NCBI GenBank assembly: GCA_964632315.1
Contig: CAZWEM010000051.1
Location: 1-32,403 of the forward strand
Direction: 5' to 3'
Length of the DNA stretch: 32,403 bases
From: an uncultured archaeon
GTDB lineage: Archaea > Asgardarchaeota > Lokiarchaeia > Sigyniarchaeales > SOKP01
The notes under the pieces were generated by a model, which ran no database searches, was not told the origin of the DNA, and saw only the letters and a list, made by a program, of their open reading frames with translations. The translations under genes were made by a program, and so were the position numbers. How positions within the stretch are numbered: position 1 is the stretch's first letter; each line of letters starts with the position of its first letter. This document shows, piece after piece, positions 2,922 through 31,594 of this stretch.

Positions 2922-4280
2922 TTATAACTTTTTATTTTTTAGCAGGTGATCGATGTTATAATTAAAAGCAATGGGTATCTCTCGTTGAAGAAGTTCTCCT
3001 GCGATATTCGTGAGTAATAAATCTTTAATCTTTTTTGGATCTTGTGTTTGTCCTAAAACCCATCCAAGTTTCACGTATGCGACTTCGGGGAGTAAATTTT
3101 TTCCGGGTATCACTCCAATGTTCTGCAATTCTCTTCCCGTAGAATAAACATCCATTGCAACAAATCCGTGTAGTGTCTGCGTGGTCATTAATACGGTAAT
3201 TCCTTGTCCAATTGCTCTTTCAATTGATTTGTAAAGCGATGTACTGACATGTCCTAAGCCCGTACCAGCTAAAACAATCCCCTTGTACCCCTTATCAATA
3301 TAAAAATCAATAAGATGGCTCTCCATTCCAGGGTATGAATAGACGAGGGCAATCTTATTTTCGAATTCAGTTTTAATCTGTAATTCCGAATCATTCCGTT
3401 TTCTCACATTATCCTTGAAATACTTAATTTTTCTATCTTTAACCATGCCTATTGGAATGTCATCAATCGTTCGAAAGGTATCACGGACGGAAGAATGCAT
3501 TTTTCTTACAAGAGTTCCTCTATGAATTAAGCCATACTCATGAGAAGTTGAACCGAGCATCACTAAAACCACTTCAGCTAAATCCGAAGTTGCTACTGTT
3601 GCTGCGTTAATTAAATTCATAGCAGCATCTGAAGACGGTCTATCAGAACTTCTTTGACTACCAGTTAAGACTATAGGAAATGGTAAATCTTTTAACATAA
3701 AAGATAAGGCAGCGCTGGTGAAACTCATTGTATCTGTTCCGTGTCCTATTATTACTCCGTCTTTTCCGTTGTCAAAAGCCTTTTTAATTTCTTCAGCTAA
3801 TTTTTGCCAGAATTCGGGACGCATATTTTCAGATAAAATCTCAAAAACCATCTTGCATTCAAGGTTGCATATTTCTGCCAGTTCTGGAACGGAACTAAAT
3901 AATTCTCCGGGAGTAAATGAAGGAATGACAGCTCCAGTGGTATAATCTAATCTAGATGCAACCGTTCCCCCAGTACCTAATAGAATCACGTTGGGTAACT
4001 TTTTATTAAAAGGGAATTTTTTTTCGGGTATTTTATACAGAGCTTCCTTTTTTCCAACGTTTTTAATTTCCAAAATTTCATCCACGTGAATTCCAATATT
4101 ATAATTGTTTTCAAGTTTTATTTCAATGAAATTAGGTGCAGCAGATTCAGCTCTTGGTAAAATGATTCCTTCAAGGATAGTTTTAGCCGTTTTTAGTTGA
4201 ACGATATCCCAAACTTCGAGATTTTCTTTTTCCAAGAGATTTTTTGCCTTTTCTTTATATCCCTTTAATTTATTTTCCAT
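2922..4280 (-). CDS. gatD: Glu-tRNA(Gln) amidotransferase subunit D
   Basis: Asparaginase motifs TGGTVAS and HGTDT, GSQRSSDRPSSD, RKMHSS; GatD N-domain KLENNYNIG; abuts gatE. Confidence 0.97.
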   Translation of the reverse strand: MENKLKGYKEKAKNLLEKENLEVWDIVQLKTAKTILEGIILPRAESAAPNFIEIKLENNYNIGIHVDEILEIKNVGKKEALYKIPEKKFPFNKKLPNVILLGTGGTVASRLDYTTGAVIPSFTPGELFSSVPELAEICNLECKMVFEILSENMRPEFWQKLAEEIKKAFDNGKDGVIIGHGTDTMSFTSAALSFMLKDLPFPIVLTGSQRSSDRPSSDAAMNLINAATVATSDLAEVVLVMLGSTSHEYGLIHRGTLVRKMHSSVRDTFRTIDDIPIGMVKDRKIKYFKDNVRKRNDSELQIKTEFENKIALVYSYPGMESHLIDFYIDKGYKGIVLAGTGLGHVSTSLYKSIERAIGQGITVLMTTQTLHGFVAMDVYSTGRELQNIGVIPGKNLLPEVAYVKLGWVLGQTQDPKKIKDLLLTNIAGELLQREIPIAFNYNIDHLLKNKKL

Positions 4281-11907: not shown

Positions 11908-12618
11908 TTAAATAAAATCAGTTATTTTTCTTGTTAAAACTTCAGATTCTAAAATCCTCTTTACTGTATTCCAAGATTTTCGGGCAAAATCGGGAGCTTT
12001 TTTATGCTTTCGAATCCATTCTGTCAAGTAATTGATTGTTTTTTCATCAGAAGTATATCCAGAGCCGAAATCTCCAAATTTTCTATGTAATTCAGAAATT
12101 AATCGATCTCTTGTAACTTTTGCTATGATTGATGCGGCTGAGACAATAGGAAATCTCTCATCAGCTTTATGTTTTGAAATCAGTTTAGGAGGAGTGTAAA
12201 TTAATAAATCACGCATAGAGTGCCCAAATCTCTTTTCATTAACGTCAGCTGCATCAATGTATATTACATCAGGTTTAAAAAAATTGATAATTTCAGCCAT
12301 TTTTAATTGTTCTAAACGACTTAAACTGATTTTTAAATCAATTCTTCTATCAATTTCCTCAGGAGTAACTATAAAACACTTGCAAACACATATTTCATTA
12401 ATTTTTTTAAAGAGAGATGTTCTTTTTTTTTGTGATAATTTTTTAGAATCTTTCACCCCTAGCTGAGATAATGATTCCAATTGATCATAATTGGTGCATA
12501 CTCCTGATATAATCATCGGTCCTAAGACTGGACCTCTCCCCGCTTCATCTATTCCACAAATTAGTTTACTCTTTTTTTTTGTTACTACTGATGAGGTCAA
12601 TGAATTCCTCTTCATCAT
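11908..12618 (-). CDS. rnhB: Ribonuclease HII
   Basis: GIDEAGRGPVLGP, DSKKL, YIDA, HKAD, VSAASIIAKVTRD, GSGY. Start uncertain (ATG 12618/12615 or TTG 12600). Confidence 0.95.
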   Translation of the reverse strand: MMKRNSLTSSVVTKKKSKLICGIDEAGRGPVLGPMIISGVCTNYDQLESLSQLGVKDSKKLSQKKRTSLFKKINEICVCKCFIVTPEEIDRRIDLKISLSRLEQLKMAEIINFFKPDVIYIDAADVNEKRFGHSMRDLLIYTPPKLISKHKADERFPIVSAASIIAKVTRDRLISELHRKFGDFGSGYTSDEKTINYLTEWIRKHKKAPDFARKSWNTVKRILESEVLTRKITDFI

Positions 12619-16578: not shown

Positions 16579-17541
16579 TTGCCAATTTGTTATCATTGTG
16601 GAGAGAACGTCACTGAAACGCATATTTGTGAGAGATGTGGTAAAACTTATTGTTCACTCCATAAAAATCCGATAGATCATGAATGCAATCTTGTGGTAGA
16701 ATCAGAAAGGTTACAGACAACCTTAACTCCAAATTATGTAACTCAAAGAGCTTTTCAAGTTCCCTCAGGAACTCAATCAGAACTAAGAGGGACAACGGAT
16801 GGAACTTATACTTGGTATCGCCAAGAAAAGCAAATCCCGGATAATGCTTTCGATCCTGATTCAGGAATTCAATTTAAAGGTATACTATTGGCGCATAAAT
16901 CGGAACTTACTCATTTTATGATTGGAGCGGTATTGATTTTTCTTATCGGTATTATTTCATTTTTTGAAGTTGTTTATGCCGGCTATCTTTGGGCGCTTTT
17001 TTTACTCTCTACTTTTTATATGACTGCTTTCTTATTTCATGAATTTGGTCATAGACAAACTGCTATACATTTTGGATTGCAAACTAAATTTCGTTTGCTT
17101 ACATTTGGAATGCTCTTGACTGTCTTTAGCCTTATTATGGGACTTTCAAGTTTAATTACTGGATCCGCTTTATTTCCCATGCTTGCATTGCCAGGTGCTG
17201 TTGTTGTCTTAGGATTAGATAAAATTAGTAGAAAAACCGGTTTATGTAAGGCTGCTGGACCAAGCGTGAATTTAATTTATGGTACTATTATATTATTGAT
17301 CTCGTTCGTAATTCCTCGTCAATATTATCCGTTGAACCATTTTTTTGGTTATGCAGCTTACTTCAATTTTATGCTCGGTTCATTTAATATGATCCCATTA
17401 GGAATATTAGATGGTCAAAATATCTGGAGATGGAATAAGCGAGTTTATATCTCACTGATTGTACCTTTAATTGTCTTGTTAATCCTAACTTTAATAATGA
17501 TTAATGCTCCCGTTGGATTAAATCCTTATTTTCCAATATGA
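16579..17541 (+). CDS. AN1 zinc finger fused to M50 (site-2 protease family) intramembrane metallopeptidase
   Basis: CYHC..CERC..YCSLH..DHEC AN1 pattern; HEFGH, AAGPSVN and NMIPLGILDG M50 motifs; multiple TM segments. Confidence 0.9.
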   Translation: MPICYHCGENVTETHICERCGKTYCSLHKNPIDHECNLVVESERLQTTLTPNYVTQRAFQVPSGTQSELRGTTDGTYTWYRQEKQIPDNAFDPDSGIQFKGILLAHKSELTHFMIGAVLIFLIGIISFFEVVYAGYLWALFLLSTFYMTAFLFHEFGHRQTAIHFGLQTKFRLLTFGMLLTVFSLIMGLSSLITGSALFPMLALPGAVVVLGLDKISRKTGLCKAAGPSVNLIYGTIILLISFVIPRQYYPLNHFFGYAAYFNFMLGSFNMIPLGILDGQNIWRWNKRVYISLIVPLIVLLILTLIMINAPVGLNPYFPI

Positions 17542-17605
17542 TAAAATTTATCATGATCACTAGATTATACTCTATATAATATTAAGATCTATAATTTGAT
17601 ATTTT

Positions 17606-18526
17606 ATGTCATTTTGTGAATTTTGTGGAAATGAAATAGGATATTTACCTTTTAAATGTAAATATTGTGGAGGGACATTCTGTAAAAAACATCGATTACC
17701 AGAAAATCATGAATGTTCTTTTGAATTAAAACATACACCCGTAGTGCCGTTAGCTAGAAGAGAAAGAACATTTAGCTCAACACAAGCAAGGCGGAATCAA
17801 CGAGTAAAACAACCAAGAAGGTTACGAAGGTATTTAAAAAGGCAAGATGAACCAATAAGTTTACGTCCAAGGAGATCTCCTAAATGGAGGACGAATTTCC
17901 CCGCCACAAAAAGCTTATTATTACTAATTATAACAATTTCCATTATTGGTTCTATTTTATATAATTATGGATTGGGTTCTTATATCTTTTTTAGCTTGTA
18001 TGGGCTTTATAACAATTTTGCATTTCATACGATCCTAACCTCACTTTTTATTACTAATTTTGATATATTTAGCTTCGCATTCTTCATTGAAATCTTTTTC
18101 ATGGTAATCATGTTATTCTTTACATACCTTCTTTCTAGATCAATTGAAATTGCTTTAGGATCTTGGTTTTTAATCAAGCTTTATCTAATATCAACTCTCT
18201 TCTCTGTTCTCTTCTACACGCTCCTCAGGTTGACTTTAATTGCTGTTGCACCAATTCAGTCTTTTGCTCTTCTTAAAGGTTTTGCATGGGGAGGGATCTT
18301 AGGTTTAATTTCTTATTCTTTATTTCCAGTGATGAACCAAGAAATAACAGCATTAATGATGATAATCCCAATGCGGATGAAAGGAAGATCCTTCCTAATC
18401 ATAATTATCTTGCTAAGACTTTTTCCCTTACTAATTGATCCATTAGCCTTCTGGTTCTATCTTCCCGATCTTGGGGGGATTCTTGGAGCTTATCTCTTAT
18501 TTAAATATCAGCAGAGAAGAATCTAA
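17606..18526 (+). CDS. AN1 zinc finger fused to rhomboid-fold membrane domain lacking catalytic residues
   Basis: [26 protein letters not shown]; rhomboid-like [26 protein letters not shown] (for GxSG) and DLGGILG (for HLGG). Confidence 0.8.
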
Positions 18527-18527
18527 A

Positions 18528-19184
18528 TTGCCTGAAGAAAAAACCTTAAAAATAATCGAATTAAATGAAGATTTAATTGCTAACAATGAGAGATTAGCTG
18601 CTCAGAATAATGCTCTATTCAAAAGTTTTAATTTAAAATCCTTCGATATAGTTGGAGCCATCGGGGCGGGTAAAACAGCCATATTGGAAGCAATTACAAA
18701 AAAGTTAGCCAATAAAATGAAAATTTTAGTCATAAATGGCGATGTAGCAACTAGAATAGATGCCGATAGAATTGAAAGATATGGGGCAAAAGCCGTACAA
18801 GTGAATACAGGAAGAGAGTGTGCTTTAAATTCATATCATATATCCCAAGTATTAAAGAATTATGATTTGAACTCTTTTGAAGTGGTCTTTATAGAAAATG
18901 TTGGAAATTTGATATGTCCATCCGACTTTATTTTAGGGGCGGAAAAAAGAATTGTTGTTGTATCCATTACCGAGGGTGAATGGGTAATTCAAAAACATCC
19001 CTTGCTTTTTAAGACATCAGATATCGCTATAATCAATAAAATTGATTTAATAGATGTAATGGAGGTAAATCTTGATGGGATGATTAAAGATGCCAAAAAT
19101 ATTAATCCTAATCTCACAGTTATAACTGCCAGTGCTAAAACAGGTGAAAATATATCAAAACTTATTCAAATTCTAGAGATTTAG
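18528..19184 (+). CDS. hypB: Hydrogenase nickel incorporation GTPase HypB (short form)
   Basis: GAIGAGKT, GDVATRIDA, NTGREC, ENVGNLICP, SITEG, NKID, SAKTG. TTG 18528 immediately follows the upstream stop (track start 18471 overlaps it). Confidence 0.93.
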   Translation: MPEEKTLKIIELNEDLIANNERLAAQNNALFKSFNLKSFDIVGAIGAGKTAILEAITKKLANKMKILVINGDVATRIDADRIERYGAKAVQVNTGRECALNSYHISQVLKNYDLNSFEVVFIENVGNLICPSDFILGAEKRIVVVSITEGEWVIQKHPLLFKTSDIAIINKIDLIDVMEVNLDGMIKDAKNINPNLTVITASAKTGENISKLIQILEI

Positions 19185-21257
19185 GAGTATAATATTTGTT
19201 GTATTATTTTATGTTTTTTTTCATCTTTAATGCTGTTCAAAGCTGTTAAATCTTCTAAATAATCGAATGTAAATCCTTCCTCATTGAAAAGATTTTCAAA
19301 AAAATTAACACAATTTCGTAGACCCTGTGAAGGTCTATCTACAGCATAATCTTTCCAACACATAAAGTTAAATTCTTTAACATAAATCCAATAAAGTCTA
19401 CTGTCCAAAAGGGATTCAATAAAATCTTCATCTGTTAATAGTTCAATTGCTCTCTTTTTTCGATACTTTCTAACAGCCATAGTATATGTTCTATCAAACT
19501 CTTTTTGAAAGACTGAAACTCTATCTTGCTTTAACCAAGAGTTTCGAAATGAATCTACATTTTTATAGCCTAAAATTTTAGCAATTTCTTCCATTCCAAT
19601 ATCCCTTATAAACCATTCAACCCATATTTCTCTTGGAATTCCCTTCACTGTATTCTGATCTTTAAAATCATTTTTAAATTCGTTAGCTAATTCTTTTAAA
19701 TTACACCAGTTAAAATTGGGTTTTTTCATAAGATCTCTCAATTGAGTAACATTTAATCCATAAAACCATTTTTTATAATTTTTTTTAACTCGATAAGAAG
19801 AAGCGCGATGTAGAGTTTTAGCAATGTCCATCCATAAATACTCTTTATGTTCTAATAACTTTTGCATAATCAATCTAAAGAATAATTTTAGTATATTATC
19901 CCAACTCTCCCAAAATTTATTAAGATGGTGATAAATAGTTCTAAAATTTATGTTTATATGGTAATAAGTTGATAGCTTTTCATTAATTTCAGGACCAGTA
20001 AAACCAAGACAAATTAAGAAAACAATATCATAGAGAGGCAATGTTCTATATCCTGGTTTTTCTGGAGAGAGTACCATATTGAGTCCATTTGGATATAATG
20101 TTCCTCGATAGTATTCTCTATTAATATTCAGCTGGAAATTTTTAATATACCACCTTTCACGGGCCCAAGCAGTTTCATAATTTCGATGTACTTCAATAAT
20201 CTCCATATTAAAATATTGGTTATATAAAACCATTGCGATTCTTTCAATTTCAGCTTTTTTTTCCCACATTTCCCTCCCTAAAAAGTTAAGCCTAAAATAA
20301 TCATTTAATGGAGATAATTCTAAATCATTTGAATGATTTTTTGTAATATAAGCTTCCAAGACTTTCAGGATTAAATATTCAATCAATCTATTAGGAAAAT
20401 CAAAATTTGTAAGATATGACTCGATTGCATCTGCTGTATGCTCGATGAATCTCTCTTTCAGTGTTTTCCATGTTACACCTATGTATGTTTCTGTTAAAAC
20501 ACCTTCAAAAATGTCGAGAGGTTTGATTGGTTTAATAATGTATATTACACCTCCATATTTTACATTCTCTTGAACTGTGAAATTTTCAAATCCAGATTCT
20601 CCTCTAGATAGATAGAATTTACCATTTAGCATTTGTTGAAGATGAGTTTTATTCTTAACAAATCGGGGAAGATTGTAAGTTTTAATTGAATCTATTAGAA
20701 CAGAACACGCGGTTTTAAATGCTGTCTTTTCTATCTTATTTGTAAACTTTTTTTTTGAGATAATTTTAAACATTCTAAGGCTTATATCGCGTTTAGTTGC
20801 TAAATAAGAAATACTCGAGATTAATTTATTTATATTATTTGAATCATCCTCTATGTAACCCGTTAAAACATTTTTTTCATTTAGCTTTACATTTTTATAG
20901 GTATGGTTAGAATCATCTAACCAAGGAGATTGACTTTTATTATCTATAATATCATTTTCAATCATTTCTAAGGGTGGAAAACCGCAAAAATTCTTTTGAA
21001 ATTTTATCTGTTTTTTAAGGCTAGGTATTTTAGAATGCCTCTTATCTGTACAACTATAATTATTGTCATTCATACTAATTTACTAAATTTTTTTAATTTT
21101 AGCAGAAGATATTCTGAACAACAGAATCTCTTAGTCAGAAATTCTTTATCCAACTACCTCAACTTCATTTAATATTGTATCTTTTTGTCTTTATAAATAT
21201 TATATGACCCTATAATTATAAAAAAATACAAAAATTTGTATATATATTGTCTGATTT
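18987..21257. mobile_element. Putative homing-type insertion: replacement hypB 3' end plus inverted GIY-YIG gene
   Basis: Bounded by diverged direct copies of the hypB 3' end (18987-19184 and 21258-21458). Boundaries approximate. Confidence 0.65.
19181..21073 (-). CDS. GIY-YIG family nuclease with C-terminal HTH-like regions (homing endonuclease-like)
   Basis: GVIYII...TYIGVT...ERFIEH (GIY, YIG, conserved R), ARERWYI (E), PNGLNM (N); later EEIAKILGY and MDIAKTL HTH-like helices. Confidence 0.75.
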   Translation of the reverse strand: MNDNNYSCTDKRHSKIPSLKKQIKFQKNFCGFPPLEMIENDIIDNKSQSPWLDDSNHTYKNVKLNEKNVLTGYIEDDSNNINKLISSISYLATKRDISLRMFKIISKKKFTNKIEKTAFKTACSVLIDSIKTYNLPRFVKNKTHLQQMLNGKFYLSRGESGFENFTVQENVKYGGVIYIIKPIKPLDIFEGVLTETYIGVTWKTLKERFIEHTADAIESYLTNFDFPNRLIEYLILKVLEAYITKNHSNDLELSPLNDYFRLNFLGREMWEKKAEIERIAMVLYNQYFNMEIIEVHRNYETAWARERWYIKNFQLNINREYYRGTLYPNGLNMVLSPEKPGYRTLPLYDIVFLICLGFTGPEINEKLSTYYHININFRTIYHHLNKFWESWDNILKLFFRLIMQKLLEHKEYLWMDIAKTLHRASSYRVKKNYKKWFYGLNVTQLRDLMKKPNFNWCNLKELANEFKNDFKDQNTVKGIPREIWVEWFIRDIGMEEIAKILGYKNVDSFRNSWLKQDRVSVFQKEFDRTYTMAVRKYRKKRAIELLTDEDFIESLLDSRLYWIYVKEFNFMCWKDYAVDRPSQGLRNCVNFFENLFNEEGFTFDYLEDLTALNSIKDEKKHKIIQQILYS

Positions 21258-21458
21258 ATAAAGAAACATCCCCTATTATTTAAAATGTCTGATGTCGCTG
21301 TGATTAATAAAATTGATTTGATTGATGTAATTGATGTAAATATCCAAGAAATGATTTCAGATGCAAAATCTATAAATCCTAACATTGAAGTGATAACTAC
21401 AAGTGCCCTGTCTGGAGAAAACATTTCAGAACTTATTGATTTGATTTTTTCTCACTAA
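21258..21458 (+). pseudogene. hypB: Orphan 3' fragment of hypB (66 codons, lacks the 5' portion)
   Basis: Translates IKKHPLLFKMSDVAVINKIDLIDVIDVNIQEMISDAKSINPNIEVITTSALSGENISELIDLIFSH*. 43 of 65 aligned residues identical (manual count) to the HypB C-terminus; in-frame TGA at 21252 just upstream. Confidence 0.92.
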
Positions 21459-21534
21459 ACTATTAAGATTTTAAAATAATAATAAAAGCAACACAACATT
21501 TTTTATATAATATATATAGAAATAGGTCATATCA

Positions 21535-21948
21535 ATGTCTCTTAGATCGTATAATCAAGAATTGGGATTGTTGCTTGAAAAGATTGTTAAAGTCTATTTA
21601 GATGGTGATAAATTCTTTGTTGGGCAACTGAAAGGAGTATCAGAAGACTCGAATCTCATTTTGATCAATGCAAAAAACGAAAAGAATAAAGATTTTCCAA
21701 AGCTACTCATTCGGAGTAGCTATTATAAGTTTGTGAGCGTTGAAGAAGAACCGTTTCCCTTAAAAGCTTTATCTGAAAGGATTGCTACTATTTTTTCTGG
21801 TCATGTGAACTTTATTGAAGATCAGAACATCATTTCCATCTTGAATGGAAAAATAATTGTAGATGAAAATGGTGTAAGAGGTTCAGGCCCTTCCGCTGAC
21901 AGAGTAAAGAAGATATATGAACAATTTATAATGGATATTGAAAAATAA
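21535..21948 (+). CDS. Sm-like archaeal protein with C-terminal domain (SmAP3/Lsm_C type)
   Basis: Sm1 VKVYL..GQLKGV..NLILINA, Sm2 LLIRSS; C-domain ending GSGPSADRVKKIYEQF. Confidence 0.85.
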   Translation: MSLRSYNQELGLLLEKIVKVYLDGDKFFVGQLKGVSEDSNLILINAKNEKNKDFPKLLIRSSYYKFVSVEEEPFPLKALSERIATIFSGHVNFIEDQNIISILNGKIIVDENGVRGSGPSADRVKKIYEQFIMDIEK

Positions 21949-21968
21949 TTGATTTTTTCTTTTTTTTT
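21949..21968. terminator. T-tract between convergent genes
   Basis: ttgattttttctttttttttaa directly after the SmAP3 stop. Confidence 0.4.
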
Positions 21969-22473
21969 AATTTTCTGAATTTTCATTCTCAAATATTTTT
22001 ATAAGATTATCCAATTGTAGATCATTATAAATATTCTTTAAAGCTGCTTTCCCTAAAGGACTTAATCTAATAATGCTAAACTCCTCGTTTTTTCGGATAT
22101 AATCATTATCTATTAAAAATTTTAAATCTGTATCCCATATTTCTTCAAAAATTTCTTTAATATCTTTAATTGGAATGACTTCGTCTAAATCTTTACCTAT
22201 AGCTGCAATGATAGCCAAAATTCCATATTGGCTTGGAGTAATATTATCATCAATCCCATCTGTTGTTAAAATATAGTATCCCTGACCAAGAAAGTTAGTT
22301 TTAATTAATTCAAAACCAACTCTCTGCAGGTTTAAATATACTTCACTCATGATTTCTTCAAAATTTAAATCTCTACTAATTGTTTTTAGATCCTCTTCCC
22401 TAATCATTTTTTGAGGACTAGTTAATATTAAATTTGCTATTTTTCTTGTTATTTGAACAATTTCACTTTCCAT
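21967..22473 (-). CDS. Tandem winged-helix protein, KITE-like (Nse1/Nse3-MAGE/ScpB/JetB class)
   Basis: WH-A: IREEDL..FEEIMSEVYLNLQRVGFELI..YYILT. WH-B: YGILAIIA..LKFLIDNDYIR..IRLSPLGKAAL. Size and pattern fit KITE proteins. Confidence 0.55.
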   Translation of the reverse strand: MESEIVQITRKIANLILTSPQKMIREEDLKTISRDLNFEEIMSEVYLNLQRVGFELIKTNFLGQGYYILTTDGIDDNITPSQYGILAIIAAIGKDLDEVIPIKDIKEIFEEIWDTDLKFLIDNDYIRKNEEFSIIRLSPLGKAALKNIYNDLQLDNLIKIFENENSEN

Positions 22474-22475
22474 AA

Positions 22476-24110
22476 TTAATTTACAATCTCATTAATTTTG
22501 ATTACATTTAAATTCTGTATCATTTTTTTGGGCTCAAAATTCTTAATAATAAAAGTCAAAGAAATATCTTTAAAAGATTGATCATTCCGAACTAAATTTA
22601 GAAGTTTTTTAATTGTTCTGAAAATAGAGCCTTTTTTATTAAATTTTTCAGGCAAAAAAGTGTTTGAAACAATTATCTGCTTTAAATTATTGATTAATTG
22701 GATAACTATTATAAAACATATGGTAATGTATACTTTTTCGGGCGTCGTTAAATCGTTAAATTTTAATTTCTTTTCCTTATTTCGCTGAAATTTAGGTTCT
22801 ATTAAAAATTTATCAGTTATTTTCGAAATAGAGAGATTTAATGAAATATTAAGATTAATTTCCCTTAGCAATGGATTGATTTTTACTTCAAATTCATTTA
22901 AAAGTTGCTCTATCTTGTGAAATGCTTTAAAGATTAAATCGACTTCCAAATTGTCATCTTTTTCTAAATCGAATTTTAATTTTTGGGTTAAATTCAGTTT
23001 ATCACTTACTTTTTCGATTAAGAAAGGAATATTTTCAGGTAAATAATTTTCAGTAAATTTTCTCGTATCTATTATATTTTGAATTTGTGAGTCCAGCTCG
23101 TCAATCTCATCTTTAACTTCTCTAGGCGTCCTTAAAGGGTCTGCCATAAGCGAGGCATTTACTAATTCATTCTTATTTACGAGGTTATTTAATTCAGCTT
23201 GTTTCTCAAAGATTCTTTCTTGATCTTGAGTGATTTCATTTTTAAGTTTCAGAAAATCGCTTTCTATTGACTCGTATTGTGGTCTGAACGATTCAAAATC
23301 AATTTTATCTTGTTTAATAGATTTTTTAATTTTTTTTGAATCATATTGAATTTCTTGAGCTTTAATTTGAAGAGCTCGAATTTTTTCAGCATTAGATAGA
23401 TCTTTGTCTATTTCAATCTGATCAAACCCTAATGCGCTTGGTTCTACTGAATTAGCTTCCATATCTCTTGTTATATAATTAATATACCTAAAACATTGTT
23501 TCTTTTGATTATCTAAGTTTTTGATTTGCTCATTTTTCGTCTGAATTTTTTCTTGAATTTTCTCAAATTGATTCTTTTTTTCTATATAATCTTTTTCAAG
23601 ATATTTTAATCGATTTTGATTCTTCTTTATTGAATTTTGCAATTTCTCAATTAAATCCTTAATAGCTAGCTTTTCACTTGATTTTTTATACTGCTCCGAA
23701 ATTTTTAACAGATTTATAGCTTTGTTCTTTTTAAGTTCAAGAATAAGGAGCTTAAATATATTTATAATATCAACAATTAAATCGTTATATTCTGAAATTA
23801 ATTTAAAATTTTGCTCAATATTTTCTACTTTTCTGTTCAATAGTGTTAAAAGCTCATTAATTTTTTTTAAATCATTGAATTCTTTAGATTTCTTATCTAA
23901 TGAATCAATAAATAGGGTAATTGGTATGCTCTCTAAATTTTCTAATATCTTAAATAAATTATCATTTTCTATGTTCGCAAGATCTTCCTTCTTAAAATTA
24001 CCCAAAACTAAGTTATATTTTTCTAGATTGTGAATCTCCCTATTTCCGATGAGCATTTTGCTTTCAAAATCCAATTTGTTTATATCTTCTCCATATCTAT
24101 TCTTTATCAA
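22476..24110 (-). CDS. SMC/Rad50-like coiled-coil protein with degenerate ABC ATPase head
   Basis: Long central coiled coil; C-terminal FNDLTTPEKVYITICFIIVIQ..QIIVSN aligned by eye to LSGGEK..hhhhDE; N-terminal YNLVLGN lacks GKS. Confidence 0.55.
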   Translation of the reverse strand: MIKNRYGEDINKLDFESKMLIGNREIHNLEKYNLVLGNFKKEDLANIENDNLFKILENLESIPITLFIDSLDKKSKEFNDLKKINELLTLLNRKVENIEQNFKLISEYNDLIVDIINIFKLLILELKKNKAINLLKISEQYKKSSEKLAIKDLIEKLQNSIKKNQNRLKYLEKDYIEKKNQFEKIQEKIQTKNEQIKNLDNQKKQCFRYINYITRDMEANSVEPSALGFDQIEIDKDLSNAEKIRALQIKAQEIQYDSKKIKKSIKQDKIDFESFRPQYESIESDFLKLKNEITQDQERIFEKQAELNNLVNKNELVNASLMADPLRTPREVKDEIDELDSQIQNIIDTRKFTENYLPENIPFLIEKVSDKLNLTQKLKFDLEKDDNLEVDLIFKAFHKIEQLLNEFEVKINPLLREINLNISLNLSISKITDKFLIEPKFQRNKEKKLKFNDLTTPEKVYITICFIIVIQLINNLKQIIVSNTFLPEKFNKKGSIFRTIKKLLNLVRNDQSFKDISLTFIIKNFEPKKMIQNLNVIKINEIVN

Positions 24111-25137
24111 AATGATTTTTATATTTCTTAAACTCCTCGGTTTTTAGTTTTTTTCTTTCTCTAATTATGTCGATTGGATCTCTTTGATCATCATCCTCAT
24201 TTAGGTAATCATCTTGATACTTTTTATCGAATTGAGATTTAAATTGTTCAATCTTTTCAGAGATTTCATCACTTATATTTAACTTTTTAGAATGATTTTT
24301 ATCTGGTTCTATTTCACTTAATTTTTCCCTTCTCTTCTTTCTTCTTCTTCTTTCAAATTCTTTTGAAGATAAATTTAAATAATCTCTATAAGATTGATTT
24401 TGTTCTTCTTGTTTTTTTTTATTTTTTTCTAATTCTTCCTTCTTTTTTGCTTTTTCAATTGACTCTTTTCTTGTTGATAATGCTTTATCTGTTAGTTTTA
24501 AATTATATTCATTAAAAAAAATGTCAAAAGTTAAATTATTGTCCCTAAGGAAAGCTTTTTTGAACTTCTCAATTAACAAAGGATCTGTATCTTTAGTTAT
24601 TTTGGTTAATTCTTTCTCAAGTCTTTTTTCTATAAGTATTTTATTAAAAAGCCCAAGTTTTTCAATCGATTTTTTGAATAAAGAATTTTCTTTTAGTGAA
24701 TCAAGTATTTCTAACCACTCGTTAAAATTTACTGAGGGAATGTAAGAGATTTCAGAAATGACTATACTAATAATTTTTCTCTTTATTAAGGATAATCCTA
24801 AATCCTTAACTTTTTGCTGATTTAGATTTAGATTTTTTAAGTTATTTTTATAATTTATTCTGTACTTTTTTATAAGATCTGCTTGAACTGATAATAATGA
24901 TGATATATTATTATTAGTTGCTTTAATTAATTCTGAATCAAGATTGTGAATTAAACTAAAGAGTTTATTTAATTGATTATCCTCAAGACCTAAAGCATCA
25001 CTTACTAATATTTCCTTTCTGATTTCTCCTAACTTCATAGAATTTTTTTCTAATTCATTAAGACTATTTTGGAGCTTTTTCACGGGCTCCGTAATTTCTT
25101 TAACTTTTTCCAAATCAAAAATGATAGTATTTGACAT
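24097..25137 (-). CDS. Hypothetical helical/coiled-coil protein with highly charged C-terminus
   Basis: 346-aa ORF in operon; K/E-rich, RRRRKKRREK tract. Confidence 0.75.
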   Translation of the reverse strand: MSNTIIFDLEKVKEITEPVKKLQNSLNELEKNSMKLGEIRKEILVSDALGLEDNQLNKLFSLIHNLDSELIKATNNNISSLLSVQADLIKKYRINYKNNLKNLNLNQQKVKDLGLSLIKRKIISIVISEISYIPSVNFNEWLEILDSLKENSLFKKSIEKLGLFNKILIEKRLEKELTKITKDTDPLLIEKFKKAFLRDNNLTFDIFFNEYNLKLTDKALSTRKESIEKAKKKEELEKNKKKQEEQNQSYRDYLNLSSKEFERRRRKKRREKLSEIEPDKNHSKKLNISDEISEKIEQFKSQFDKKYQDDYLNEDDDQRDPIDIIRERKKLKTEEFKKYKNHFDKE

Positions 25138-25158
25138 TATAATCTATATAAGTCTTAA

Positions 25159-26247
25159 TTATATTTCAGGAGGCTTTATTAAAGATTTTGAAGTCTTTTT
25201 ATTAGAATTTCTTGTACTTGCGAGTATATCTTGACGTTCTACATGAATGGCTGTGCCCCCTACCAATTTTAATGAATTATAAAATAGTTCATATGTTAAT
25301 AATTCTGTCGATATTGATTTTAATAAGGCAACTCTGGTTCCTCTCTCAATATCAGACCCAGAGTAACCATGAGTTAATTTTAAGAGACCATCATCCTGGA
25401 TCCGTTCACTTATTTCTTTCCAAAAGGCATTATTATCGAATTCAGAGATTTGACGACCTAACTTTTGTCTCAAATCCTTTTCGATTTTGTTGATTTGAGA
25501 ATATTCCGTTTCTATTTTCTTGAAAATAAGAGAATCAACCCCTATCTTTGCTTTTTTAATCTTATTGAGAAATGATTCTATGATTTTTTTCCTTAAATGA
25601 TAATCAGGAAAATCAAATTCAAAATGAAAGGTGAATCTTCTCCAGATTGCAGAATCTAATTGATGCTGATGGTTTGTGGCTCCAAAAATTGCTAAAGGTA
25701 CTCCTTCATAATTAACTCTATCAATTACTTGTAAGAATGAAATCACTGCTCTCTTTATTTCACCTACTTCGTGAATATTGGACCTTTCGGACCCTATAGC
25801 ATCAATTTCGTCAAAAAACAATATAAAAGCTCCTCTGTCTTTTGAAATTTCAGCTGATAGTTCTACTACATTTCTTATATTCTTTATTGTGTCTCCTAAT
25901 AGGGGGGATACAAGTCTATCCGATTCGACTACACAAATTGGAACGTTATATTTTTTTGCAAAACCTCTTGTAAGAGAAGTTTTCCCAGTTCCTGGAGGGC
26001 CGTATAGAAGAACAGTTAGATTAGGATTCAGATTCGTGTTTTTTAATTGTTCTATAAATTCATCATATTTAATTAAAGCTTTAAAAAAATCGTCAAGAAG
26101 ATCCTTCACAAATTCATTACCTATAATATCTTCTACTGTTTCTTTAATATCTGAAGAGAAGTAGATTGCGCCATATTTTCCTAACCTATCATTTATAACT
26201 TCATCAGTATAGATATTATTTCCGTTCCCATTTTTTAATTCAGTAAT
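25159..26247 (-). CDS. AAA+ ATPase (classic AAA clade, single module, no recognisable N-domain)
   Basis: Walker A GPPGTGKT, Walker B FFDEID, sensor 1/SRH ATNHQHQLDSAIWRRF, GYSGSDI. Frame is open upstream of GTG 26109 through ETVEDIIGNEFVK to a stop at 26256; start uncertain. Confidence 0.9.
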   Translation of the reverse strand: MTELKNGNGNNIYTDEVINDRLGKYGAIYFSSDIKETVEDIIGNEFVKDLLDDFFKALIKYDEFIEQLKNTNLNPNLTVLLYGPPGTGKTSLTRGFAKKYNVPICVVESDRLVSPLLGDTIKNIRNVVELSAEISKDRGAFILFFDEIDAIGSERSNIHEVGEIKRAVISFLQVIDRVNYEGVPLAIFGATNHQHQLDSAIWRRFTFHFEFDFPDYHLRKKIIESFLNKIKKAKIGVDSLIFKKIETEYSQINKIEKDLRQKLGRQISEFDNNAFWKEISERIQDDGLLKLTHGYSGSDIERGTRVALLKSISTELLTYELFYNSLKLVGGTAIHVERQDILASTRNSNKKTSKSLIKPPEI

Positions 26248-26272
26248 TGTTTTTCATCTCTTTTTATGTAAT

Positions 26273-27580
26273 TTAATTATACTTTCTTTCTTTTTCAAAT
26301 TTTTCACAATATAAGGCTACTTCAACAATTAGATCCTTCAAATTATCTATTTGAGATCCAATAAAATTAAATATTTCTTTACGATATTGTACAGAATCTC
26401 GAATTTTCATTTTATCTAAACCAAGATAATTTGGAAAGCATATTAATTTCATTAAATAAGGCAATACCTTTTCATTTGTCTGCAAATCCTTGAATATTGA
26501 ATAGAAAATATTTTCATCTGATAATTTCCATTTCAAGATTCCCATATATATTAAAAATGAAAAATTCAGAGAAATCCAGTTAAGCAATTCTTTAGATAAA
26601 AAACCTCTTCTTTGAGAAGAGAAAGCAAGGTAATACAAAATTAATGTTTCATTACTAAATTGAGGTAAATATCTAATTTTTCCGTCTGATTGCTTGTTAG
26701 AGCGAATAAAGTTATTATCTAATAAGATTTCTAAAAAATTTTCATTTGGAGCAATAAACAAATCATCAATAACTCGCAAACCTATTCTTTCACAAATCTT
26801 TTCAATTGCTTCTTCCTCAGCATTAGCAATTGAATCAATGTATGGTAAAAAAACATCATTTTTTAGTATCATTGGTACTTCATAATTTGCATTCTCTGGT
26901 AACAAGCCAAAATTAGGATCTAAATTGAAAAGGGAAGTTATGTTATTTATTATTTGATATACTTTAGGAGATAATCCCGGGATCTCAAAAAGGTCTTCAA
27001 CCTCGAGTTTTTCTCGATAATATGTATGAGGTTGGAGAATATGTCGTTGACATTCGTAAAAATCGACAGAGAATTCGAGAAGCTTTTCATAAATTATTTT
27101 TAAGTTAGTTCCCCTTGGAAATAATCTTTCTTCGAGGAATTTAGTAAGAGAATATAAATATGTATTTTCCAGATTTATTTCATCTGGATTAGTAATATGT
27201 CTTAGAATGTTAAGCGCGCTAATGGACTCATACAAGAATTCAATTATATAATCTTTAATGTCAATAATCGGAATATTTTCTCTATATTTTATAATAAAAT
27301 CTTTAATTATTTCATACACATTAGAACGATACATTGCGGAAAATTCTGAAAGAGCTCTTACTTTCCTAATATTTCTCTTTTCTTCTTCTTCGCGTATTTT
27401 ATCTAATACTTCAGTATCCAATAAGAGATCCGGATCTAAGTCACTTATCAATCTCCGTGTTTCTCTTAAAATTGGTCTCATATGACTTATAAAAGTTAGA
27501 TATCTAGGAAAGATATCAGTCCATTTTTCTCTTTTTCTCCCTGTTTTCGTTGATCTTGTACTTCTTCTTTTATAACTCAT
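26273..27580 (-). CDS. Hypothetical protein (435 aa) with basic N-terminal tail
   Basis: Long ORF with ATG, tight operon spacing; MSYKRRSTRSTKTGRKR tail; no motif recognised. Confidence 0.8.
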   Translation of the reverse strand: MSYKRRSTRSTKTGRKREKWTDIFPRYLTFISHMRPILRETRRLISDLDPDLLLDTEVLDKIREEEEKRNIRKVRALSEFSAMYRSNVYEIIKDFIIKYRENIPIIDIKDYIIEFLYESISALNILRHITNPDEINLENTYLYSLTKFLEERLFPRGTNLKIIYEKLLEFSVDFYECQRHILQPHTYYREKLEVEDLFEIPGLSPKVYQIINNITSLFNLDPNFGLLPENANYEVPMILKNDVFLPYIDSIANAEEEAIEKICERIGLRVIDDLFIAPNENFLEILLDNNFIRSNKQSDGKIRYLPQFSNETLILYYLAFSSQRRGFLSKELLNWISLNFSFLIYMGILKWKLSDENIFYSIFKDLQTNEKVLPYLMKLICFPNYLGLDKMKIRDSVQYRKEIFNFIGSQIDNLKDLIVEVALYCEKFEKERKYN

Positions 27581-27599
27581 TATATTATTCCTTTATACT

Positions 27600-28739
27600 T
27601 TAATTTTCATCATAACCAACAGCTATTTCAGTAAATATGTTAGCGATTTCTACAAATATTGGAATTTCAACTCTAACTAGTTCACCTAAAATCCATTTAT
27701 TAACATCTTTAAGTAGGAATCTAATTTGATTGTGAATTTTTTTATTGATCTCAGAATCAATAATTTTTGATAGCCATAGACCTCCCCCTAATCTATACGC
27801 TATAATTTTTATTAAAGGCTCAAAAAGAGGTTCTAAAACTTGTTTCATCATCCAAGATTTAGGAATAACGCTCATCGAACCTTGATCAAATGCAGGTTCG
27901 TTTAAAATAGGATTTGTTTCATCTAAATTCAATTTCGGCATGAAGCTTAAGAGTAATATTAAAGCAAAGATAGCACTTATACCATTTACCGTATACGCAC
28001 CCCCAATTTTATCGAGATCATCAAAATTTACAGCGATATTTGCTAAAAACATACATATAAATACATTTCTATCAAAAGATTCAGAAACATATGCATATCC
28101 TAATTTATCATCTAAAATTAGATACTTTTCTTGCAATATTTTAATAATCTCATCTGGAAACGTATAAAAAGTGTAGGTTTTTTCTTCACTTCTTCTCACA
28201 TCCTTATTTATAATCAATTCTCTGGATACTAAACCAAACATATTTACCAGTTCATCCAATTGTTTCTTAATATAATGTCTGGGTTTGTTCGGATCTCCAA
28301 ACATTGCATAAAATTGATAATCAACTATATGAAAATCGTTTCTCTTACTAAATGCTTCCACCATGCGGTCGATTATTGGTGCTTGAGATCCAGTAGCTAT
28401 TGCTTTTACTTTAGAAGTTACAAATCCGTTTAATAATTCATTAATGATGAAATCTTGCTCATGAGTGCGTGATTTCAATATACTTTCGAATGCACGAGCA
28501 AAATTTTTTGTGCTTGGGAAAAAAGCATTTTGAATTTTTTCGTTAATTGCTTTTATGAATAAAGCGCCGTCATTTTGAGGAAAATATTGTTTTATATTCT
28601 CTAATCTTTGAATTAAAGCATTTTTAGCTCCAGGGATATTTTCTACATCACGATCTTTAACTTTTTCGATAGCAATGCTTAATCCCTTTTCAAAGGATAT
28701 CAATAATTCATTCCAAGTTCGATTTTTTCTTTCAATCAT
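27600..28739 (-). CDS. Hypothetical protein (379 aa)
   Basis: Long ORF with ATG, 19-nt gaps on both sides; no motif recognised. Confidence 0.8.
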   Translation of the reverse strand: MIERKNRTWNELLISFEKGLSIAIEKVKDRDVENIPGAKNALIQRLENIKQYFPQNDGALFIKAINEKIQNAFFPSTKNFARAFESILKSRTHEQDFIINELLNGFVTSKVKAIATGSQAPIIDRMVEAFSKRNDFHIVDYQFYAMFGDPNKPRHYIKKQLDELVNMFGLVSRELIINKDVRRSEEKTYTFYTFPDEIIKILQEKYLILDDKLGYAYVSESFDRNVFICMFLANIAVNFDDLDKIGGAYTVNGISAIFALILLLSFMPKLNLDETNPILNEPAFDQGSMSVIPKSWMMKQVLEPLFEPLIKIIAYRLGGGLWLSKIIDSEINKKIHNQIRFLLKDVNKWILGELVRVEIPIFVEIANIFTEIAVGYDEN

Positions 28740-28758
28740 CTAAAATCATTCTATTGTA

Positions 28759-29721
28759 TCATTTTTCCCATTTTAGATCATTAGCTATTTTTTTTAACGC
28801 TTCTATTAAAGGTTTGAGTATTTCTTTATCATAAATGTTTGGTGAAGATACTCCCCTTTGACTTTTCCAACCCATTTGAGTATTCATTCCCATTTCTCTT
28901 TGACCATATTTGATGAGATTACTAAAATCTCGATTCCACCAATAAAAACGTAGCCATCTTTTGCTTTCTACACCTTTAGTATAAATAACCACGATTGCTT
29001 TCCATTCTCCAACCAGCCATTTAACTGTTATCCCACTTACGGGTAAATAAAAGTTGATTGGAAAATTAGTTTGAAATCTTAAATCCAAATCCTTAGGATC
29101 GATATTAAAAATGGGTTGGTTATAACCCTCTAAAATTACAATTTCTGAACAATGTTGGCAAATATAATGAGATTTATGTTTTTCCATTTTCTGTTGACAG
29201 TTAGGACAAGTTCGATTTTCTATGATCCGAGCTTTAATAATTTCTATTTTCTTTTCTTTTTCCCTTTCCTCTTCAGTCTTTACTTTTTTTGCTCCAAATT
29301 TTCCTTTCCAGTTCCATTGATCATCAAAAGATTCATCTATTTTTTCAAGTGCATTAATGGTATTTTGAAGTACAATTCGGTTATAGATTTTAAACATGCC
29401 AGCGTGTTGATAGGTTTTCCACCAAGAAATTCTAACGTATTTTTCCTCTTTTAAAATTGAACTATGGCAAATCAAAACTGCTAGAACTCTCGTATTTGTT
29501 GAATGAACTACAATCCCTTTCTCACAAATTTCGTAATCTTTGTTTAGTGATAATTTGGTATGAAAATATTCTCCATCCTTAAGACCAGATGAATCTTCCT
29601 TTTCTTCTAAGACCTCAGATTTAGATTCGCTTTTCTGCTTTAGAATTTTCCTGCATCGAGGACATTGATATATGCCTTCGACCAAGGGCTCCATCTCTAT
29701 ATTACATGCAGGACAAATCAT
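28759..29721 (-). CDS. Protein with two tandem [Zn ribbon + beta-rich, possibly PC4-like] units
   Basis: CPAC..CPRC and CPNC..CQHC ribbons, followed by YVRISWW..KIYN..NTINALEKI and WLRFYWW..NIYD..PLIEALKKI respectively. Confidence 0.75.
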   Translation of the reverse strand: MICPACNIEMEPLVEGIYQCPRCRKILKQKSESKSEVLEEKEDSSGLKDGEYFHTKLSLNKDYEICEKGIVVHSTNTRVLAVLICHSSILKEEKYVRISWWKTYQHAGMFKIYNRIVLQNTINALEKIDESFDDQWNWKGKFGAKKVKTEEEREKEKKIEIIKARIIENRTCPNCQQKMEKHKSHYICQHCSEIVILEGYNQPIFNIDPKDLDLRFQTNFPINFYLPVSGITVKWLVGEWKAIVVIYTKGVESKRWLRFYWWNRDFSNLIKYGQREMGMNTQMGWKSQRGVSSPNIYDKEILKPLIEALKKIANDLKWEK

Positions 29722-29723
29722 TT

Positions 29724-30824
29724 CTATTCTTCACTACTGGTAATTAATAATCGTTCGAAATCTAAATTAAGTAAACGTAAATCTTTCTTGTTAAAGTTTG
29801 ATATTTGTTCGTTTATCTCTATTATCTTTTCTCTCAGATCAATAAGATCGTTTTGTATATTATTGACAATATTATCTTCATTAAATGATACTTTTTCTAT
29901 AAAGGCGAGATAAGTATTCTTTTTATTTTTTCCAGTGTAATAATTCCTCAAGATGTCTATTTCTTTTTTGATATCGTGAAATCTTGCTCGTGCCTTTAAC
30001 AATAAATTCATAGTAGAATACCACTTATTAAATAAACTGTGATTTTTATCCACTTTATCATAATTAAATTTCTCAGATAATTTGATTTTCTCATCTTTAA
30101 GGTAACTTATAATCTCTCTATCTTCTTCTATCGCATTTTTAATTTTTTTCATCGTGGGTTTTGAATTTAATAAGGGATCAAATATTTCAATATGTTGGTT
30201 AAGTTTTTCTTCTATTTCATTATACCTCTCAAAAAAACCCTCAATTGTATGTTCAATTTTAATTGCTTGAAAAATATTTCCAAACTGGTCCAATATGTAA
30301 TAGAGATCATCCGATATAGTATAATCATGTTCACCTATCTCATAAAGAAAGGAATGTATGATATTTGATTTTTGACAGCTAACTCCCTTTAACTTTGTAA
30401 GAGCCAAGTTAAAATCTCTTCTCATTATCGATTTAAACTTTTTAGTTATGAAAAGAAAAAGAGTGTCAGCAGGTACAGAAACAACTTTATTTTCAATTGT
30501 GATTGTTTCTTCACCTAATTTCAAAAGAAAATCTCCAGCTTTTTGTTCAAATTCTCTTAAACTTCGAATATTTTTGAATAGACCTAAGTCAATAGCAATA
30601 TTAGTAAATTCTTTATCCCAGAACTTAATAACATTATCTTTATATATTTCATCAAGTATCAAGACTCTTTCATATGAATCTAGAAGATTTGGATTGTTTA
30701 GATCATCAAATAAGTCATTACGAATTATGTATAAAAACAAAATTATATATCTCATATCTATATCTTCAAGGATTTTATTTATCAAATCCTCATCTTCATC
30801 TAATGATAAGTTCTGATGTTCCAT
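29724..30824 (-). CDS. Hypothetical protein, probable N-terminal winged helix plus helical/coiled-coil C-half
   Basis: TLFLFITKKF..RRDFNLALTKL..FLYEIGEHDYTISDDLYYIL WH-like pattern; heptad-rich C-terminus; first gene of the operon. Confidence 0.75.
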   Translation of the reverse strand: MEHQNLSLDEDEDLINKILEDIDMRYIILFLYIIRNDLFDDLNNPNLLDSYERVLILDEIYKDNVIKFWDKEFTNIAIDLGLFKNIRSLREFEQKAGDFLLKLGEETITIENKVVSVPADTLFLFITKKFKSIMRRDFNLALTKLKGVSCQKSNIIHSFLYEIGEHDYTISDDLYYILDQFGNIFQAIKIEHTIEGFFERYNEIEEKLNQHIEIFDPLLNSKPTMKKIKNAIEEDREIISYLKDEKIKLSEKFNYDKVDKNHSLFNKWYSTMNLLLKARARFHDIKKEIDILRNYYTGKNKKNTYLAFIEKVSFNEDNIVNNIQNDLIDLREKIIEINEQISNFNKKDLRLLNLDFERLLITSSEE

Positions 30825-31018: not shown

Positions 31019-31594
31019 ATGGGAAGAAGAAAAAGAAAACAACAAACCTATAAACGAGTAAAAAGAGTTCCGAAGATCTTTACATGTCCATCTTGTGGAG
31101 AGAAATCTGTAAAAGTGGAAAATATAAGACGATCAGCAATTGCTACAGTTAAATGTGGTTATTGTGGATTAACAAAAGATGTAATAGTAAATTCTATATC
31201 TGAACCCGTGGATGCTTTTGGAGATTTTATCGATATATATTATGCGGATCAAGAATTACAGAGATTAGAAAAAAGAATATCAAAATTAAAGAAGGAAGGT
31301 GAATGGGGTGAACTGGCGTTATCATATTCAATTTTATCCGATATATGTCGTGCCAAAGCTGCAGAAGCCTTGGATGAGGATGAACCTGATATAGATGAAG
31401 CAAATGAATGGAAACTTAAATCTGAGCAATATAAGCGATTAGAAAAAGATGCTTTAATTCAGCTTGATACCTTAGAATTAGAAAAAGGTATAAAGACTGA
31501 TGAAGACTCATTATTTGATGAAACTGATGGAAAAGTTAAACGGGAAAAAAAAATAGATGATATTTTTGATGATCCAGGTTTTTTAGAATTTTAA
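31019..31594 (+). CDS. elf1: Transcription elongation factor Elf1 with long C-terminal extension
   Basis: MGRRKRK, FTCPSC..CGYCGL, EPVDAFGDFID Elf1 core in the first about 75 aa. Confidence 0.9.
   Translation: MGRRKRKQQTYKRVKRVPKIFTCPSCGEKSVKVENIRRSAIATVKCGYCGLTKDVIVNSISEPVDAFGDFIDIYYADQELQRLEKRISKLKKEGEWGELALSYSILSDICRAKAAEALDEDEPDIDEANEWKLKSEQYKRLEKDALIQLDTLELEKGIKTDEDSLFDETDGKVKREKKIDDIFDDPGFLEF

Follow-up and report, generated by a model that had tools for sequence, protein, structure and literature searches.

The window analysed here, i.e., positions 1-32,403 of contig CAZWEM010000051.1, comes from a Promethearchaeia (Lokiarchaeia) archaeon of genus g1 and harbors a hypB gene whose 3' end occurs twice, the two copies being separated by a gene for a large nuclease of the GIY-YIG family. 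The comparison of this sequence with the corresponding loci of related genomes (cited below by L and G numbers, respectively) indicates that the arrangement is probably an intron-less homing element, working like the WHO elements of yeasts and the mobile open reading frames (mORFs) of fungal mitochondria, and equipped with a nuclease of a different family.

Structure of the hypB Locus

The hypB gene (218 aa; 18528..19184, + strand) is complete at the DNA level and passes the TIGR00073 model with 229 bits against a cut-off of 121. On the basis of segment trees and sliding identity, it is an intact chimera of a host 5' part and an element-borne 3' end; the latter (18978..19184, + strand) is of the E151 type, terminates with LEI-stop and is assigned to the element from its similarity to the attached end of L059 in genome G129. 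The nuclease gene (630 aa; 19181..21073, - strand), recognized by Pfam and by homologue alignment, is arranged tail-to-tail with hypB, the stops of the two genes overlapping by 4 nt. An AT-rich spacer (21074..21257) comprises the upstream region of the nuclease gene and the right end of the element, and is the site where the relatives carry their cargo genes. It is followed by the orphan, i.e., the native hypB 3' end that has been displaced (codons 154-219; 21258..21458, + strand), assigned by its grouping in the 3' tree, and then by the SmAP gene (Lsm and Lsm_C domains; 21535..21948, + strand), which at empty sites is located directly 3' of hypB.

The two copies of the hypB end (18987-19184 and 21258-21458) are located where the original prediction had placed them, in register and 2271 nt apart; they form a direct repeat of 174 nt with 74% identity, the next longest repeat family within 5 kb being of 31 nt. 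At the amino acid level, 43/66 residues are identical, and 60 of the 195 aligned nucleotides differ (32, 20 and 8 at the third, first and second codon positions, respectively), corresponding to 16 synonymous and 22 non-synonymous codon differences; the many synonymous differences that had been reported are therefore real. The orphan is likewise devoid of stops and frameshifts, its frame being open from I154 to the stop and preceded by TGA-TTT. Its first ATG would give just 57 aa, and thus the list of open reading frames (ORFs) shows only the antisense ORF 21200-21424. Neither a splicing RNA nor an intein domain was disclosed (Rfam gave no match at 17500-22500, and Pfam neither a Hint nor an intein domain at the locus), and no Phage_integrase match exists on the window's contig, in agreement with the earlier claim that integrase, intron and intein are absent. 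A promoter scan with a sigma-70 model returned counts at chance level.

Origin of the Two hypB Ends

In the 3' tree, the window orphan clusters with L003, L004 and L006, three empty alleles (support 99/96), which belong to the same host clade and whose genomes also hold the closest SmAP (85-88% aa identity) and the closest upstream gene. It is the orphan, and not the attached end, that groups with the empty alleles of the host clade, as had been anticipated. The attached end shows 86% nucleotide identity to the attached end of L059 (G129, genus g28), 74% to its own orphan and at most 79% to any empty allele; the attached ends of the window and of G129 pair in the 3' tree with a support of 94/79 (not starred). 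The 5' parts of these two hypB genes share about 71% identity, that of G129 being nested in another genus than the window's, and in the segment trees the attached end does not group with the hypB 5' part. The nuclease of G129 is also the closest to that of the window (71%), the identity between the nucleases of G129 and G113, which belong to the same genus, being just 50%. All of this bears out the proposal that a foreign 3' allele displaced the native one.

The same pattern can be recognized at other loci. In L114 (G109), the orphan is 92-95% identical to the host relatives and the attached end at most 80%, and the G109 neighbours that match the orphan also have a 91-94% identical SmAP; in L059, the orphan reaches 88-91% and the attached end 80%. 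A topology in which the attached end and the orphan are sisters was rejected by the approximately unbiased (AU) test for L114/G109 (p 0.001) and marginally for L059/G129 (p 0.043). Moreover, occupied alleles are found at scattered positions of the hypB 5' tree: the 17 rows require 12 changes, of which 8 are forced by starred branches. As in mORFs, the inserted C-terminus is foreign and the native one displaced, and, as in homing elements, the horizontal spread with flank co-conversion is accompanied by subsequent decay and loss. No donor lineage was found, the attached ends not forming one clade in a short tree of 132 columns.

Empty, Occupied and Decayed Sites

It had been predicted that an empty site would read hypB directly followed by SmAP: 58 related loci are so arranged, with the two genes within 130 bp, and 14 bear the nuclease, so that empty and occupied alleles of one site coexist among relatives. 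Two full hypB paralogues at this position were not found in any relative. All the other nuclease homologues with at least 45% identity and a visible 3' side (11/11) are located tail-to-tail with hypB, and long hypB orphans are present at six further loci (L044, L050, L059, L091, L114 and L115); the layout typical of WHO elements, i.e., replacement 3' end, nuclease and displaced native fragment, is thus found at seven loci including the window. L059 corresponds to JBHLKB010000292.1, a record titled Hodarchaeota, but its genome G129 falls within the window's family.

In the relatives, up to three cargo genes are embedded between the nuclease and the orphan, including those for an AAA_15 ATPase, a Roc/AlbA_2 protein and a response regulator; no recombinase was detected among the scanned cargo genes. 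The simplest elements (window, L059 and L091) contain the nuclease only, as do complete inserts of 2.1-2.3 kb, and in L044 and L115, whose hosts are near-identical, both the cargo and the orphan start differ. Different stages of decay were also disclosed: frameshifted nucleases (L059, L051), deletion remnants (G109, G102) and loss of the nuclease with a scar (G017, G021, G005, G064). Of these last genomes, G017, G021 and G064 retain an element-type end, a cargo gene and an eroded orphan of 19 codons; the 400-aa gene in the scar of G017/G021 has no Pfam match. The empty allele of G117 harbors element-type codons 146-193 followed by a native tail.

This last organization is found in a wider set of empty hypB alleles (L137 of G117, L149 and the L005 group), with element-type codons from about 146 to 193 or beyond and native tails; judging from their sequences, they are probably mosaics left by excision or conversion. 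Orphans ending with LEI (L053, L091) were considered as possible nested insertions, an explanation rejected for L091 since the native hypB of genera g27, g21 and g25 terminates with LEI/LEL. Three loci (L134, L135 and L138, in G130, G107 and G122) contain a 1.4-kb insertion between hypB and SmAP with an ORF that, by eye, resembles an IS200/IS605 TnpB, i.e., an unrelated element. Lastly, in L038 (6392-6547; G007:C72), an internal hypB fragment following the second hypB paralogue and two inserted genes ends exactly at EGEWVIE.

Breakpoint Zone and Right End

When occupied alleles are compared with their host relatives, the sliding identity is about 88% and drops to 65-74% at codons ~140-151 (L114/L151, L059/L170, L046/L027); when the window is compared with G129, it increases from about 71% to 85% across the same codons. 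By homology with this drop in the relatives, the putative left crossover zone of the window is placed at 18945..18980 (+ strand), just before G150-E151-W152. On the other side, a common noncoding right end of 55-100 nt (79-83% nucleotide identity, E 5e-17 to 2e-8) precedes the orphans of L050, L059 and L115, whose first codon is 150-151, as would be expected if the boundary was copied from the donor; the same right end is present in L044 and is not detectable in the window. Other orphans start later (codons 154, 156, 169 and ~200), which is consistent with erosion. The abrupt start at I-K-K-H-P described in the original prediction is correct as far as the frame is concerned; since the orphans of the relatives start three to four codons earlier, I154 is probably an eroded start and not the insertion point. 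A candidate alignment in which the window orphan reaches decayed codons 151-153 behind the common right end was not significant (p 0.04-0.67).

All 14 nuclease-bearing alleles have Glu at codon 151, and 40/58 empty alleles have Pro; of the three orphans reaching this codon, two have Pro and the third Ser. An L-x-I/L end is shared by 14/14 nuclease-bearing and 6/58 empty alleles (nominal p 2e-6, inflated by kinship). These data suggest a putative target site around G150-P151-W152.

In L050 (499-594), L115 (5028-5125) and L059 (1329-1393), the common right end supplies an in-frame ATG three to four codons before W152, with a TATA-like sequence ~25-30 nt upstream, which is absent in the window; in these hosts the orphan could be expressed as a peptide of ~70 aa.

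The Nuclease and Its Family

A profile search retrieved 118 relatives of the nuclease. In an alignment of 37 homologues (about 20-50% identity), Y178, Y197, G199, R208, E306 and N332 are invariant and H212 nearly so; the match to I-TevI holds residue by residue. The protein thus contains the G-x-Y and Y-x-G motifs, followed by an Arg and by C-terminal Glu and Asn, that characterize the GIY-YIG pattern (PMC1564403). The catalytic region (residues 175-332; 20078..20551, - strand), delimited by this alignment, is split by a long helical insertion, and downstream lie helix-turn-helix (HTH) modules (residues ~344-520; 19514..20044, - strand), presumably in charge of DNA recognition, indicated by HTH Pfam matches in the homologues and by weak matches of model residues 344-455 to AraC-type double-HTH structures (Z 3.9-4.4).

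The 630-aa protein itself matches the Pfam GIY-YIG domain weakly (E 0.0017, below the gathering score); PF01541 is matched by 16/37 family members, with a best value of 6.6e-8. In the full-length model (predicted template modelling score 0.44), strands 175-182, 197-201 and 288-296 are compatible with a GIY-YIG fold. The search of this model against the PDB gave no significant match, only weak HTH-type matches (Z <5), with no GIY-YIG structure among the fold matches listed, and a PDB sequence search returned no GIY-YIG chain; the isolated domain, folded without an alignment, had a predicted local distance difference test score of 32, too low for the model to be used. The Atlas feature neighbours of the nuclease are phage GIY-YIG/HTH proteins (0.87-0.89), to be read as leads at values <0.9, and the viral contigs searched contain no homologue. 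Matches to the family occur in 34/134 genomes of the same taxonomic family and in 1/26 genomes outside it.

A weak similarity to an RGS-domain profile (best E 0.006) in the N-terminal helical part (residues ~80-150; window 20624-20836) is absent with a wider alignment and is probably due to chance. The GIY-YIG-HTH module is also located at the C-terminal end of two other reading frames, a giant one of 9447 aa and one of 1369 aa next to an operon for ribosomal proteins, and is matched by a 13771-aa frame (loci G151:C8:27325-27933, L080; G017:C74:47606-48064; and G004:C109, L041). These modules would be either in-frame insertions or toxin-like tips.

Duplicated Ends at Other Genes

The original prediction that nuclease homologues might lie between duplicated gene ends elsewhere is verified at hypB and at three other genes. 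In three of the ~38 loci with distant homologues, the nuclease is flanked by a duplicated end of the neighbouring gene on its 3' side. In two cases it is the 3' end that is duplicated, i.e., in the gene for a subunit of an HGD-D dehydratase (68-78%) and in a 497-aa gene of unknown function (111 aa, 79%), where cargo is also present; in the third, a radical SAM gene, it is the 5' end (about 87 codons, 72% over 64 aligned). This represents an enrichment over the genome background of 12 orphan-type partial duplicates near 3718 ORFs (p about 3e-4). Beside the distant homologues linked to mvhD, rfcS, porA or a second radical SAM gene, a duplicated end was not detected.

In L127, an orphan 3' copy of 74 codons (774-995; 77%) is separated from its gene by an empty stretch of 84 bp and lies 3.4 kb from a distant nuclease homologue. 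In the window's own genome (G000; contigs C16, C42, C20, C7, C9 and C3), ~8 other genes, to judge by eye apparently including ahcY, porB and pyrI, are followed at a distance of 0.2-3.7 kb by a diverged orphan copy of their C-terminus; the intervening genes are unrelated, and none codes for a nuclease of this family. The porB case is also found in L040.

Proposed Mechanism and Alternative Explanations

The mobile unit would consist of the 3' third of hypB and the nuclease gene, with optional cargo and a short right end. When element DNA meets an empty chromosome, the GIY-YIG/HTH protein would cut the empty hypB near codon 150-151, and the break would be repaired from the donor, its left end pairing in the well-conserved codons ~125-150 and its right end with the donor's orphan fragment or with SmAP. 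Afterwards, the nuclease would decay, the orphan erode and cargo enter the neutral spacer; alternatively, recombination between the two copies might remove the insert, leaving a mosaic hypB. Homing of intein endonucleases is known in archaea, and the repair step is thus plausible there. The invariance of the catalytic residues down to about 20% identity also counts in favor of a homing element.

Several points weigh against this interpretation. The GIY-YIG assignment stands on motifs and weak Pfam matches; just three of the ~38 distant-homologue loci have a duplicated end; L045 and L058 carry the nuclease and SmAP with no recognisable orphan; and related alleles are not independent, so that the nominal p-values overstate. 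As many as 18/58 empty alleles, including those of the close window relatives G016 and G035, already have Glu at position 151, and hence this codon alone cannot explain resistance; some of these alleles, such as that of G117, resemble mosaics left by excision. The window has no close empty relative, its orphan being at most 76% identical at the nucleotide level, and a local duplication there passes the AU test (p 0.064); the case is built on all the loci taken together. The identity between donor and recipient is often just 70-85%, no DNA-transfer route is known for these archaea, and it is from comparison that we infer cleavage, the target site, resistance and the route of transfer.

Other explanations were also considered. 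The locus might be a recombination hot spot at which islands of foreign DNA are inserted, one side recombining with homologous sequence in hypB and the other being joined illegitimately; the nuclease would then be a passenger with a defence or addiction role, and would not drive insertion. The variable cargo, the scars without nuclease and the ~8 nuclease-free C-terminal duplicates of the same genome speak for this scenario; it is nevertheless unlikely, since the replacement end is always touched by the nuclease gene, with overlapping stops, one right end at codon 150-151 is common to four loci, the homologues repeat the layout at three other genes, and the simplest elements consist of the nuclease only.

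The second alternative is a remnant of an integrase-driven island or provirus that used hypB as attachment site, its integrase having been lost or acting in trans. The anatomy is the same as that of icd-e14-icdC (PMC13626634), and the common right boundary and the cargo genes also speak for this origin; but no integrase was found on the contig or in the scanned cargo (one might still have been supplied in trans), no homologue was found in the viral contigs, the left switch points are spread over about ten codons with no identical core common to both ends, and complete 2.1-2.3-kb inserts carry the nuclease only. We regard this origin as rather improbable.

Very little speaks for a duplication of the hypB end in situ followed by divergence, or for its capture from the second paralogue, with an independent insertion of the nuclease. 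The AU test keeps the two copies of the window as possible sisters; however, the attached end is closer to that of another genus than to its own orphan, sisterhood is rejected for L114 and L059, an unexpressed copy so diverged should carry stops, and the second hypB paralogue (contig C40), just 63% identical to either copy, was rejected as a source. A chimeric assembly of two strains, to which the estimated 8.6% contamination of the genome might point, is hardly conceivable, since the same layout occurs in six other assemblies and both junctions, as the original prediction required, are bridged by contigs of other public salt-marsh runs (run X1, which may be the source sample of the window, at 18796-20203 on the left and 20844-21346 on the right) or of another study (X3, at 21186-21426 on the right).

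Genes Surrounding the Locus

Upstream of hypB, a gene for an AN1-zinc-finger membrane protein (17606..18526, + strand), identified by Pfam, is the conserved left neighbour and belongs to a tandem of such genes (16579-18526). Downstream, a conserved block of AAA+ ATPase genes spans 21967-30824. The elf1 (31019-31594) and rnhB (11908-12618) genes are uninterrupted ORFs.

Comparison with Known Systems

The closest proven model is represented by the WHO elements of Torulaspora and Lachancea, which reside at FBA1 and for which the steps of two-arm homing have been proven (Coughlan et al. 2020, PMC7282813). In their cycle, an empty allele is cut and repaired from the donor using the 5' part of the gene and the orphan as arms, with continual replacement of 3' ends and decay (PMC7282813). 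The two systems have several features in common: a free-standing gene for an endonuclease separates the host gene, intact but with its 3' end replaced, from a 3' fragment that has been displaced; the starts of such fragments lie close to a single position; the trees of the 5' and 3' parts disagree; the elements decay and erode; and they occasionally move to other genes. The hypB element differs in its large GIY-YIG-HTH protein, encoded on the opposite strand, whereas WHO proteins are LAGLIDADG/intein-zinc-finger fusions; in having cargo, with no multi-nuclease clusters seen; and in its setting, i.e., an archaeal chromosome with movement between genera instead of homing in diploid meiosis. Allele-specific cleavage is proven for WHO elements and predicted for the hypB element.

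The original prediction drew the comparison with duplicated gene ends in fungal mitochondria, and overlooked the WHO elements, the cargo genes and the variant at a 5' end. Such mORFs are found at atp6 of Allomyces and at atp6, atp9, cox2 and nad3 of Glomus; they combine a foreign replacement C-terminus and an endonuclease (a GIY-YIG enzyme at Glomus atp9) with a displaced native C-terminus that groups with relatives, and their copies have diverged similarly (64-81% nt) (PMC3630166). They differ in residing in organelle genomes and in being co-transcribed on the strand of the host gene, sometimes in frame with it, whereas the hypB nuclease is convergent; neither cargo nor a 5'-end variant is reported for them in the text consulted (PMC3630166).

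The prophage e14 (and phage 21) at Escherichia coli icd, with its icdC pseudogene, also shows an intact gene with an element-borne 3' end, a displaced native end and a chimeric gene upon loss; however, e14 is excisable and driven by a site-specific integrase (PMC13626634). The hypB element works like WHO elements and mORFs and is a member of neither.

The Seg genes of T4-like phages home without introns, lie between genes, are not known to be accompanied by a duplicated gene end and are about a third of the size of the hypB nuclease gene. Their products share with it the GIY-YIG catalytic motif and HTH DNA-binding modules, with no intron (PMC1564403).

Significance

In the literature outside subscription journals, as far as its available text extends, no description of such an element was found for Asgard or other archaeal chromosomes, nor does the text consulted of two papers on Asgard mobile elements contain one; no paper in the same literature was found to join Lokiarchaeia and GIY-YIG. 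If the homing interpretation is true, splice-free homing by gene-end replacement would reach beyond yeasts and fungal mitochondria into the chromosomes of archaea, and in particular of the lineage closest to eukaryotes, with a different nuclease family, and would offer cargo genes an integrase-free route. Since homing needs a donor template in the cell, the cross-genus hypB mosaics directly attest to homologous recombination between Asgard genomes that have diverged, and reveal its location; hypB and the other target genes are mosaic markers, to be used with caution. The nuclease is a predicted rare cutter with a defined site at hypB codons ~145-160.

A broader reading, which we advance tentatively, is that an active, Asgard-restricted family of large GIY-YIG-HTH proteins might act in the chromosomes of Promethearchaeia as a gene drive of a general kind that replaces alleles. 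Each subfamily would target a different conserved gene, swap its 3' or 5' end and carry cargo between genera by integrase-free, break-induced recombination. Were this the case, chromosome-to-chromosome contact among Asgard archaea would be frequent, and these organisms would possess a prokaryotic counterpart of the WHO/HO mechanism.

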